Origin: a virus
Lineage: Duplodnaviria; Heunggongvirae; Uroviricota; Caudoviricetes
Strand: one strand, 5' to 3'
Length of the DNA: 41,222 nucleotides
IMG/VR virus record: IMGVR_UViG_2588253749_000003
Coordinates: 1-41,222 of that record
Numbering within the stretch: the stretch's first letter is position 1; the number at the start of each line of letters is the position of its first letter. Position numbers and translations under genes: made by a program. A model generated the notes under the pieces. The model saw only the letters and a list, made by a program, of their open reading frames with translations. It ran no database searches and was not told the DNA's origin. Positions 18,958 through 20,425 of the stretch are shown piece after piece.

Positions 18958-19350
18958 ATGTCTGAACCCTTATCCGGTTCCGGCACGGCTGCTGCGCTGG
19001 GTGGCGCGACGGTATTCGGGCTGTTTACCGGGATGGATTTCGGGATTGTGTTTGGCGCGTTCGCCGGGGCGTTATTTGTGGCAACGATGCCGCAGTCACT
19101 TTCAGTCTGGCGCGTGGTGGCACATTTTCTGGTGTCGTTTATTGTCGGCGTGCTGGGAGCGCGTGTGCTGTCAGCCTGGATTGCATCAAAAACAGGGTAT
19201 GACGGTACATCAGCAGATGCGCTTTGCGCGGTGCTGGTCTCGGTGGTGTCGGTGAAGATTCTCTCGTTCATCCACCAGCAGGATATTGCATCGCTGGTGT
19301 CCGGTGTGTTCTCCCGCCTGCGGGGTGGAGGAGGCGGCAATGTTAAGTAA
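18958..19350 (+). CDS. Holin-like membrane protein
   Basis: 130-aa ORF with multiple Gly/Ala-rich TM segments; GGAGG SD; immediately upstream of endolysin. Confidence 0.55.
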   Translation: MSEPLSGSGTAAALGGATVFGLFTGMDFGIVFGAFAGALFVATMPQSLSVWRVVAHFLVSFIVGVLGARVLSAWIASKTGYDGTSADALCAVLVSVVSVKILSFIHQQDIASLVSGVFSRLRGGGGGNVK

Positions 19351-19615
19351 CCTTCCCGGATTGCTGAATGTGGCGTTATGCACGGTTATCGTGCTGATGC
19401 TCTTTTTTTATCGTCGCCGTGATTCCAGACATAAACCGCTGGTGTCATGGCTGGCCTGGCTGCTGATGCTGCTGTATGCCTTTGCGCCCCTCAGCTATCT
19501 GTGTGGTCGCCCGTTAGCAACGGGCTGGCTGGAAGTGTTTTTTAATCTGCTGTTCTGCGTGCTGGTGATACGCGCACGCGGGAACGTCACAAAAATCTTT
19601 CCATTGTTGAGGTGA
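19340..19615 (+). CDS. Second holin/antiholin-like small membrane protein
   Basis: ATG 19340 with GGAGG SD, overlapping upstream stop; two to three hydrophobic segments. Confidence 0.5.
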   Translation: MLSNLPGLLNVALCTVIVLMLFFYRRRDSRHKPLVSWLAWLLMLLYAFAPLSYLCGRPLATGWLEVFFNLLFCVLVIRARGNVTKIFPLLR

Positions 19616-19617
19616 AT

Positions 19618-19995
19618 ATGCCGGGTAAATTCAGATTCAGCCGTCGCAGTGAAAAAAATCTGGAGGGTGTCAAACCACAGCTGGTTGCTGTAGTTCGCCG
19701 TGCGCTGGAGCTGACGGAGGTTGATTTCGGTATTACGGAAGGCCTGCGCAGTAAGTATCGCCAGAAACAGCTGGTTGCGGAAGGGAAAAGCCAGACCATG
19801 AACAGCCGCCACCTGACCGGTGATGCGGTGGATGTTGTGGCCTACATTGGCAGTCAGGTGTCATGGGAGTGGCCTCTGTACGAGAAAATCGCACAGGCAT
19901 TTAAGCAGGCTGCCGCAGAGCTGGGGATCGCTATCGAATGGGGCGGGGACTGGAAAACGCTGAAAGACGGACCTCACTTTCAGCTGAAGCGATAA
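19618..19995 (+). CDS. Endolysin, peptidase M15-family (L-alanyl-D-glutamate peptidase-like)
   Basis: 125 aa; motifs SRHLTGDAVD and GGDW typical of M15 phage endolysins; follows holin-like genes. Confidence 0.7.
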   Translation: MPGKFRFSRRSEKNLEGVKPQLVAVVRRALELTEVDFGITEGLRSKYRQKQLVAEGKSQTMNSRHLTGDAVDVVAYIGSQVSWEWPLYEKIAQAFKQAAAELGIAIEWGGDWKTLKDGPHFQLKR

Positions 19996-20002
19996 GTAAA
20001 AC

Positions 20003-20037
20003 AAAACCCCGGCTGGGGGAACAGTCCGGGGTTTTTA
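20003..20037 (+). terminator. Rho-independent terminator after lysis genes
   Basis: CCCCGG...CCGGGG inverted repeat followed by TTTTT. Confidence 0.5.
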
Positions 20038-20127
20038 GTTTTCACGTCAAAGGGGAAATTGTGATTAGTGAGTACGGAGAAAATCCTCGTGGGAAAGTAT
20101 AAAAGATTCTTTTTGAGGTTGTCCATT

Positions 20128-20241
20128 ATGAAAGGTATTGAAATGGAAACTCCCGCGAGCCTTGATTTGACAAGGGCTGCGGCCTTTGCAATTCGCCTTG
20201 TGGCGGTCGCTGTTCTGATTTGGGCTGTGCGTTGGTGGTGA
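20128..20241 (+). CDS. Small hydrophobic peptide (37 aa, not in ORF track)
   Basis: Hand-translated MKGIEMETPASLDLTRAAAFAIRLVAVAVLIWAVRWW; GAGG SD; stop overlaps ATG of downstream lipoprotein ORF. Confidence 0.3.
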   Translation: MKGIEMETPASLDLTRAAAFAIRLVAVAVLIWAVRWW

Positions 20242-20269
20242 TATGGCGCGAAAACACTGGACACACAGA

Positions 20270-20425
20270 ATGCCGCGAACGGCGGTGAAACGGGCACTGG
20301 TAGCGATACTGGTGCCTTTTTTATTGGTGGGGTGCGTCAGCCTGGATAAGGCGCGCCAGCTTTTCGATACCGCGTCTCAGGTCTGTGAAATTGTCGACGG
20401 TGTTCGGCAGTGTCTGCAGAACTGA
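20270..20425 (+). CDS. Small lipoprotein (lipobox LVGC); possible o-spanin-like or exclusion lipoprotein
   Basis: MPRTAVKRALVAILVPFLLVGC signal with lipobox then short mature peptide with two Cys; ORF 20243-20425 in track. Confidence 0.4.
   Translation: MPRTAVKRALVAILVPFLLVGCVSLDKARQLFDTASQVCEIVDGVRQCLQN

Follow-up and report, generated by a model that had tools for sequence, protein, structure and literature searches.

Research on phage lysis has yet to settle how phages without a recognisable spanin get through the outer membrane. To our knowledge, the disruptin of phage phiKT is the only worked-out alternative to spanins. This protein, gp28, is reportedly not a lipoprotein. Colicin lysis (bacteriocin release) lipoproteins, whose mature part is about 28 amino acids (aa), permeabilise the outer membrane and cause quasi-lysis without a dedicated partner, partly via the phospholipase OmpLA. 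The phiKT protein gp28 has been described as a cationic antimicrobial-peptide-like protein (bioRxiv 10.1101/515445). In about 13% of the phages that infect Gram-negative bacteria, no spanin can be recognised (Kongari et al., 2018; PMC6139136). The same survey files phage phiP27, which carries the Shiga toxin (Stx) type Stx2e, as having a 'separated' two-component spanin, with an i-spanin at 20348-20542 (64 aa) and an o-spanin at 20706-20861 (51 aa). Each is a singleton family, and the pair is the shortest of all, with 62 periplasmic residues in total. Here we analyse a DNA stretch of 41,222 nucleotides (nt) from IMG/VR record IMGVR_UViG_2588253749_000003 (hereafter the window), in which the gene behind two holin-like genes and an endolysin encodes a 60-aa prolipoprotein (20243..20425, + strand). 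It is a homologue of the phiP27 o-spanin (92% identical), and the family therefore already sits in a published spanin table. We found that the lipoprotein is the fourth gene of this lysis cassette and that it is exchanged in situ with Rz/Rz1. We put at roughly 0.6 the probability that it provides a stand-alone outer-membrane step of lysis, with no phage-encoded inner-membrane partner.

The cassette begins with a Phage_holin_8 gene of 130 aa with several transmembrane segments (18958..19350, +; Pfam PF16931, E 3.3e-23; phrog_198 holin, E 2.8e-42). It overlaps by 11 nt a Phage_holin_3_7 gene of 91 aa with three transmembrane segments (19340..19615, +; Pfam PF05449, E 1.9e-21; phrog_217 holin, E 4e-38). 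An M15-family endolysin (Peptidase_M15_4) of 125 aa comes next (19618..19995, +; Pfam PF13539, E 7.5e-13; phrog_465 endolysin, E 3.6e-75). These matches bear out the first-pass annotation of the region, which had read two overlapping holin-like genes and an M15-type endolysin from the letters alone. The small lipoprotein open reading frame (ORF) with lipobox LVGC that it had also proposed is found at 20243-20425, with a signal peptide MARKHWTHRMPRTAVKRALVAILVPFLLVG, a predicted acylated Cys31 (codon 20333-20335) and a mature part of 30 aa, CVSLDKARQLFDTASQVCEIVDGVRQCLQN. This protein matches phrog_7528 over its full length (E 1.5e-35).

Genomic neighbours were collected through identical-protein look-ups, a species-level genome collection (one genome per species; 4 loci, among them Citrobacter and Lelliottia) and IMG/VR. 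In the recovered loci, the lipoprotein gene always lies 3' of the endolysin. To count its occurrence, two scans of IMG/VR were anchored on holin_8 and not on the lipoprotein; with identical sequences collapsed and at least 1.3 kilobases (kb) available after the endolysin, they gave 114 distinct cassettes. In 104 of these, the lipoprotein gene stands fourth, behind holin-holin-endolysin, with an intact copy and no Rz in 96 and a frameshifted or truncated copy in 8. Rz with an embedded Rz1, and no lipoprotein, occurs in 2/114. Only one cassette (L195) carries both, and its lipoprotein copy has lost the first 14 codons, has the changes I22V and L23P at otherwise invariant positions and adjoins a split gene. 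The remaining 7/114 have neither and contain toxin cargo (heat-labile enterotoxin LT-II), insertion-sequence (IS) insertions or deletions.

The distance between endolysin and lipoprotein varies. In the compact form (53 loci), 14 nt separate the M15 stop codon from the lipoprotein ATG, with a Shine-Dalgarno-like AGGTGGGG in front. The gap is 15 nt in Citrobacter braakii, and in Lelliottia the lipoprotein gene overlaps the end of a GH108 endolysin behind a different holin. In the window the gap is 247 nt, as in 56 loci. Insertions occupy this gap and the longer ones; they consist of a hairpin together with a small membrane peptide or two, of a 93-aa ORF, of a KilA-N/Ant-like gene or, in the case of phiP27, of an antisense 90-aa gene. 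Many sister cassettes have a GH108/PG_binding_3 endolysin in place of M15, and they keep the lipoprotein. It is also kept beside five packaging modules (Terminase_4+HNH, Nu1/GpA, ParB/TAGT/Terminase_2, Terminase_6 and deleted remnants). This retention with either endolysin and with all five packaging modules indicates linkage to lysis, and not to packaging or tails.

Two other roles within the cassette were considered and rejected. Since the gene goes with both M15 and GH108 endolysins, whose folds are unrelated, it is not expected to encode an endolysin inhibitor. Either holin could in principle serve as an inner-membrane partner, but a different holin stands beside the Lelliottia homologue, and the holin loops look short.

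The exchange with Rz/Rz1 is seen clearly between a locus with Rz/Rz1 (L079) and phage phiSTEC1575, which has the lipoprotein. The two share 89% identity from the first holin through the hairpin; after this, one continues with a peptide and Rz/Rz1 and the other with a peptide and the lipoprotein. The Rz and lipoprotein genes begin at the same junction, ...CGTTGGTGGTGATATG / ...TGGTGGTGATATG. A further trace of the exchange is found in Stx2a-type prophages with the order S-R-peptide-Rz/Rz1 (a class II holin, a lysozyme, the 37-aa peptide described below and Rz/Rz1), in which a decayed lipoprotein copy lies just 5' of the terminase. This pseudogene is unannotated and has several in-frame stops. 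It is located between the Rz/Rz1 region and the terminase at 3001-3184 in E. coli O104:H4 2009EL-2071 (L110) and at 4001-4168 in phage GER2 (L005), as well as in locus L111, and the GTGGTGATATG junction is retained in front of it. The GER2, O104:H4 and O157:H16 prophages represent one decayed lineage.

The lipoprotein/Rz slot is also occupied by toxin genes. In the LT-IIa and LT-IIb prophages Rac-SA53 (L021, 4798-5938) and SerU-LTIIb (L022, 5219-6368), the enterotoxin genes stand directly 3' of the endolysin, and those cassettes carry neither the lipoprotein nor Rz/Rz1.

The first-pass annotation had noted that the cassette lacks an Rz/Rz1-like pair, and this holds for the prophage within the window. 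A six-frame lipobox scan of the whole 41 kb gave no second credible lipoprotein ORF; the other matches are antisense or out of frame inside larger genes. A scan of the window for transmembrane ORFs of at least 50 aa found nothing i-spanin-like, and near the lysis genes no N-terminal anchor followed by a substantial C-terminal domain. Three lambda-type Rz and two Rz1 queries had no tblastn match in the window, and BLASTP of the mature lipopeptide against Rz gave no alignment. A weak match of the lipoprotein to phrog_1275 'Rz-like spanin' (E 0.048) was discounted as it mostly covers the signal peptide.

Patterns of sequence variation indicate that both small ORFs behind the endolysin, the lipoprotein and the 37-aa peptide in front of it, are real genes under purifying selection. 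Among 38 distinct intact lipoprotein sequences, the ratio of nonsynonymous to synonymous polymorphism (pN/pS) is 0.31 for the whole gene, 0.26 for the mature part alone and 0.29 for the opening ten codons. The corresponding value for the 37-aa ORF is 0.09 (from only 4 distinct sequences). The RefSeq start of the lipoprotein (WP_001138287, 51 aa) is the internal Met10, at window position 20270. However, the first ten codons (M-x-R-K-H-W-T-H-R-x) are conserved at the protein level and have a Shine-Dalgarno-like GGTGGTGA or AGGTGGGG in front. The 60-aa start (20243) is therefore better supported than the 51-aa start, and the match to the PHROG profile points the same way.

The precursor has a long, basic and conserved n-region, an 11-residue hydrophobic core and the lipobox LVGC (...PFLLVG-C-VS). 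In 22 aligned homologues, the lipobox Cys and the Gly at -1 are invariant, and residue +2 is Val or Ala. As this residue is not Asp, the Lol sorting rule predicts a location in the inner leaflet of the outer membrane. The mature lipopeptide is proline-free with a net charge of -1, and its hydrophobic residues form a heptad pattern. AlphaFold2 models a single helix over residues 12-59 (predicted local distance difference test, pLDDT, 69). Cys1, Cys18 and Cys27 are kept in all intact family members, and two invariant cysteines with the spacing C-x8-C are also found in remote relatives, including a second subfamily, ...EKARNWFGVAADVCDTVKKIKDRCNDRK. Helicity has also been predicted for the phage phiP27 protein, with Jpred assigning 25/30 mature residues to helix (PMC6139136).

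The family is small. A HMMER search of 1.84 billion representatives returned only about 24 clusters, in which the genuine members are small lipoproteins of 44-71 aa; the longer or truncated hits look like fusions or fragments, and no longer 'classical' relatives were found in this search. Members with a named source organism are from Enterobacteriaceae. The gene is present in about 6% of complete E. coli genomes (351/5426), including enterotoxigenic E. coli (ETEC) H10407, and the cassette family includes phiP27. A 2025 paper on Stx2e and the holin does not mention it. The lipoprotein matched no Pfam family at E<=1, no NCBIfam family near its cut-off and nothing in PADLOC, and a profile search of the PDB with it returned noise only, with no solved structure matched. 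PHROG attaches no function to phrog_7528, nor to phrog_4493, the family of the 37-aa peptide, and Pfam, NCBIfam and PADLOC contain no family for either small protein.

The gene also contains an RNA feature of its own. Within the part coding for the signal peptide lies a strong hairpin followed by a U-run (20280..20329, +; -25.7 kcal/mol, z -5.5), which is terminator-like in a scan. Codons 17-27 show almost no synonymous variation among 84 unique sequences, and the Lelliottia gene, despite a protein identity of 58%, still has these nucleotides. This hairpin may be an internal attenuator or terminator that silences the lipoprotein gene without Q. Scanning 19900-20800 against Rfam (E<=1) produced nothing beyond sub-threshold noise from leaders and small RNAs.

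Taken as a stand-alone outer-membrane step, the lipoprotein would work as follows. Its gene would be expressed late, together with the other lysis genes, from the operon under the control of Q; this co-expression is suggested by the encoded Q antiterminator, the lack of a promoter-like site on the + strand and the gaps of only 14 nt. The prolipoprotein would be exported, acylated at Cys31 and sent by Lol to the inner leaflet of the outer membrane. There, the 30-residue mature part would form an amphipathic heptad-repeat helix that oligomerises and is locked by the two invariant cysteines. It would accumulate harmlessly until the endolysin removes the peptidoglycan, and would then weaken or rupture the outer membrane, either directly or via a host factor: the phospholipase OmpLA, as for the colicin lysis lipoproteins, or Lpp. 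The hairpin behind the endolysin and the 37-aa inner-membrane peptide would be a module placed in front of the outer-membrane disruption gene, whichever one a phage carries. A stronger version of this proposal is that a 30-residue, disulfide-bearing, lipid-anchored helix is alone sufficient to breach the outer membrane, maybe via Lpp or OmpLA, and represents a further class beside two-component spanins, u-spanins and disruptins. We regard this version as tentative, at slightly worse than even odds. The 'miniature spanin equivalent' of the first-pass annotation thus survives in part: the lipoprotein is a probable functional stand-in for a spanin (same slot, same junction as Rz, mutually exclusive with Rz/Rz1), but does not form a pair with the 37-aa peptide.

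Several points weigh against a stand-alone step. We know of no o-spanin that is active without its i-spanin, a dependence established for lambda Rz/Rz1. A tethered helix of 29 residues (about 4-5 nm) cannot bridge the periplasm, so the mechanism must differ from the membrane-fusion model of spanins. With its net charge of -1, the mature peptide is not cationic, and it is no more than moderately amphipathic (hydrophobic moment, muH, 0.35, with 99/2000 shuffles as high); the confidence of the AlphaFold2 model is only moderate (pLDDT 69). The evidence from pseudogenes all goes back to one lineage, the Rz-bearing loci number only three (with two distinct sequences), and some related prophages are without both the lipoprotein and Rz/Rz1. 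Finally, since about 13% of phages are spanin-less, the absence of Rz/Rz1 alone does not assign the job to the lipoprotein.

The alternative that survives best, though we consider it unlikely, is that the lipoprotein is a moron with a role outside lysis, such as superinfection exclusion, host fitness or serum resistance, in phages that are simply spanin-less. Small outer-membrane lipoproteins of prophages often have such roles, excluding other phages or aiding the host; T5 Llp and phi80 Cor block receptors, and lambda Bor confers serum resistance. In the window the gene lies 3' of a terminator-shaped hairpin, and the interval between endolysin and terminase is a hot spot for cargo (LT-II toxins, KilA-N/Ant-like genes, small peptides). 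A spanin also cannot be identified in 13% of phages (PMC6139136). However, there is no promoter-like site upstream on the + strand, and in 53 loci the gene begins 14 nt behind the endolysin, too close for it to have a promoter of its own. The gene is linked to the lysis cassette while tail and packaging modules vary, the opposite of what is seen for receptor-matched exclusion genes. It is also mutually exclusive with Rz/Rz1, decaying where Rz/Rz1 is present, and has no PADLOC match. The superinfection-exclusion lipoprotein raised in the first-pass annotation gained no positive support from PADLOC, Pfam or Rfam, and we consider it unlikely.

Less probable still is a genuine two-component spanin, with the lipoprotein as o-spanin and the protein encoded upstream as i-spanin (the 37-aa peptide in the window, the 64-aa ORF in phiP27). 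This is how phiP27 was filed (PMC6139136), and in the window a membrane peptide does stand immediately upstream, with a stop/start junction suggestive of translational coupling; having an acidic N-tail and a basic C-end, this peptide could take an N-out orientation. The published partner does not hold up well, however. The 64-aa ORF of phiP27 (4377-4571, +, in our locus L002) begins with TTG, matches no PHROG family and runs antisense to a 90-aa ORF with an ATG start (4361-4633, -), which matches phrog_36812 end to end (E 5e-20). The DNA that carries it has no counterpart in the window, phiSTEC1575 or phage vB_Apl-pPE4, and the lipoprotein is present in each of these. Judging from these comparisons, the i-spanin proposed for phiP27 is not conserved and is probably an artefact. 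More generally, the 53 compact loci, Citrobacter and Lelliottia leave no room for a gene between endolysin and lipoprotein, the same peptide family is found upstream of complete Rz/Rz1 pairs, and a 16-aa tail together with 29 aa would be too short for the periplasm. While the membership of this family in the spanin table was known, what is new here is that the published partner is probably an artefact, that there is no conserved partner in more than 100 cassettes, and that the lipoprotein is the usual occupant of the spanin slot in these cassettes and trades places with Rz/Rz1.

The 37-aa peptide itself is a single-pass membrane peptide, MKGIEMETPASLDLTR followed by the hydrophobic AAAFAIRLVAVAVLIWAV and RWW (20128..20241, +; phrog_4493, E 1.8e-16; RefSeq WP_001297666), with its hydrophobic stretch at the C-terminal side. 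It is related to a family of 48-aa peptides (phrog_1115). The ORF and its GER2 homologue differ mainly in the third positions of codons; where amino acids change, L, I and V replace one another within the hydrophobic stretch. Contrary to the first-pass annotation, it does not overlap the lipoprotein ORF; its TGA (20239-20241) is followed by a single T and then the ATG at 20243, and the two genes abut. The idea that the two form a two-part unit fails as well. The peptide is missing from about half of the lipoprotein-bearing cassettes, 53 loci having the 14-nt gap only, and it is found directly 5' of genuine Rz/Rz1 in GER2, PhiR5_1 and an O104:H4 Stx2a prophage. The conservation described above indicates that it is a real accessory gene, separate and optional, and not an obligate partner of the lipoprotein. 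Possibly it tunes or modulates lysis, although this is a guess by analogy.

The peptide belongs to an optional inserted module, of which the hairpin behind the endolysin is the first element. This G+C-rich hairpin (20003..20036, no strand assigned; AAAACCCCGGCUG...CAGUCCGGGGUUUUU) has an A-run and a U-run on either side, giving it the shape of a bidirectional intrinsic terminator. The terminator-like hairpin reported in the first-pass annotation is therefore there, as shown by its folding energy (-24.9 kcal/mol, z -3.5, 0/200 shuffles as good) and by a simple terminator scan. Hairpins of this type are conserved 3' of M15, GH108 and lambda-type R endolysins, and in phage GER2 the stem substitutions preserve pairing. 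The hairpin is not present in the cassettes with a 14-nt gap. It precedes at least one small membrane peptide, and these can be related or unrelated (37-aa type, 48-aa phrog_1115, 44-aa phrog_4906, 45-aa); in Stx phages, hairpin and 37-aa peptide also stand directly 5' of Rz. The final peptide of the module ends in ...RWW-stop or ...IGG-stop, and its last codons (TGGTGG) are the ribosome-binding site of the next gene, be it Rz or the lipoprotein. That the last peptide precedes either gene argues against both a two-part device and a self-contained toxin module.

The emphasis on the small genes lying 'beyond a terminator' was overstated, even though the hairpin is real. On the + strand, the stretch from the hairpin to the small ORFs has no predicted sigma-70-like promoter, the hairpin is part of an optional insertion, and because a Q-type antiterminator is encoded (13771-14328), late transcription would be expected to read through it, going by lambdoid biology. 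On the minus strand there is a promoter-like site at 20125-20096 (TGGACA-18-TATACT, 10/12 matches) directed at the hairpin, from which a short transcript could arise, antisense to the 37-aa ORF's leader. The number of promoter-like sites equals the shuffle expectation (2 found vs 2.1 expected).

Least probable is a rival in which the 37-aa ORF encodes a type I toxin, possibly paired with an antisense RNA, and the lipoprotein is cargo unrelated to it. The size and hydrophobicity of the peptide are typical of such toxins, and the minus-strand site, directed at the bidirectional hairpin, could supply a short antisense RNA, but such sites are no more frequent than in shuffles and no Rfam family reaches threshold. 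The peptide also has a constant position between endolysin and outer-membrane disruption gene, runs in their direction and shares a stop/start junction, which fits a gene of the late operon and not a self-contained module. The small toxin module suggested in the first-pass annotation likewise found no backing in PADLOC, Pfam or Rfam, and is unlikely.

The window as a whole is a near-complete, phiP27-like lambdoid prophage of E. coli, running from an integrase (1-1119, -) through to a tail-fibre assembly gene (40656-41222). In the lysis region it shares 99-100% identity with the prophages of many human ETEC strains and about 91% with phiP27, phiSTEC1575-Stx2k and vB_Apl-pPE4. The last of these (L003; PP818812.1) was deposited as a phage of Actinobacillus pleuropneumoniae; as it carries the same lipoprotein and a lysis region with about 91% DNA identity to the window, this host assignment looks doubtful. 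Upstream of the lysis genes, the Q-type antiterminator is followed, in local order, by a DNA methylase (16772-17821), three tRNAs, a TerB-family gene (18296-18721) and a DUF3927 gene (18718-18870). An HNH endonuclease (20699-21118) and a P27-type small terminase (21234-21704) lie downstream, and the large terminase comes next.

Some of these neighbours appear to be cargo. The TerB-family and DUF3927 genes (PHROG 'TciB-like'; 18296-18870) fill a cargo slot between the tRNAs and the holin, which holds stx2e in phiP27 and pertussis-like toxin genes in other relatives. At 14328-16141, a 426-aa ATPase matches the abortive-infection protein AbiLi (PADLOC PDLC02335, E 7.6e-26; Pfam AAA_15/AAA_21) and is followed by a 177-aa ORF with no assigned family. 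This pair, inserted between the Q antiterminator and the late genes, is likely to be AbiL-type defence cargo. The tRNA at 17871-17946 is called tRNA-Met (CAT) by ARAGORN, while the homologous gene is tRNA-Ile (ileZ-type, presumably lysidine-modified) in RefSeq and the phiP27 record.

The cassette offers a tractable second case in E. coli of a phage without a recognisable spanin, in which a 60-codon gene naturally swaps with Rz/Rz1. If the lipoprotein works alone, this would correct the published two-component spanin of phiP27 and provide a minimal outer-membrane-disrupting lipopeptide, which would bear on the engineering of lysis systems and on how Stx2e and LT prophages release their toxins. 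Should it not work alone, then these prophages, widespread as they are, have no spanin.

Compared with known systems, the lipoprotein resembles the o-spanins (lambda Rz1 and the phiP27 singleton of PMC6139136). Like them, it is an outer-membrane lipoprotein with a precursor of about 60 aa, a lipobox and no Asp at +2 (acylation and sorting being predicted). It lies at the distal end of the lysis cassette, has conserved periplasmic cysteines and uses the same slot and start-codon junction as Rz. Unlike o-spanins, it has no conserved i-spanin gene and is neither embedded in nor overlapping one; no cognate gene is found in the window, and the interval upstream is variable or 14 nt. Its mature part is 30 aa, predicted to be helical and proline-free, whereas the Rz1 sequences examined are proline-rich, and it has no detectable sequence similarity to Rz/Rz1. 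With 30 mature residues and no partner, it falls short of the length needed to bridge the periplasm, as it would with the 62 residues obtained by including the disputed phiP27 partner. It shares with the unimolecular spanins (T1 gp11 type) a single gene, an N-terminal lipoprotein signal and the replacement of a two-component spanin. However, those proteins reach both membranes with a C-terminal transmembrane domain and a much longer periplasmic domain (PMC6139136), while the lipoprotein ends ...RQCLQN, with no hydrophobic segment after residue 31.

For the 37-aa peptide, a comparison can be drawn with Lcc6 of Shewanella phage LambdaSo, a 65-aa transmembrane protein needed for lysis beyond holin, endolysin and spanin (bioRxiv 10.1101/2024.01.23.576932). 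Both are small transmembrane proteins, likened here by description; Lcc6 acts at the holin step, whereas the peptide is dispensable for many sister cassettes.

The host's Lpp (Braun's lipoprotein) has the same heptad register counted from the acylated Cys: A7, L10, A14, V17, V21, V24 and L28 in the phage lipoprotein, and I7, L10, V14, L17, V21, L24 and V28 in Lpp (sequence verified against PDB 9rld). The phage protein is half as long as Lpp, lacks a C-terminal Lys with which to attach to peptidoglycan, and did not retrieve Lpp at E<=10 in the PDB profile search. Coincidence may account for the shared register, and an action directed at Lpp is speculative.

The colicin lysis lipoproteins (Lysis_col) are similarly very small and partner-less, with a similar lipobox context (LLVGC). 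They differ from the phage lipoprotein in that it has no match to their Pfam family at E<=1 and no sequence similarity past the signal peptide, and in that they are plasmid-borne and SOS-regulated, whereas the phage gene is part of a holin-endolysin cassette. The phiKT disruptin gp28 (bioRxiv 10.1101/515445) is likewise one small, helical, amphipathic protein for outer-membrane disruption in a spanin-less coliphage; the lipoprotein is set apart by its lipid anchor, its net charge of -1 in place of a cationic character, its muH of 0.35 and its two invariant cysteines. By analogy of function, then, the colicin lysis lipoproteins and the phiKT disruptin appear to be the nearest counterparts of this phage lipoprotein.

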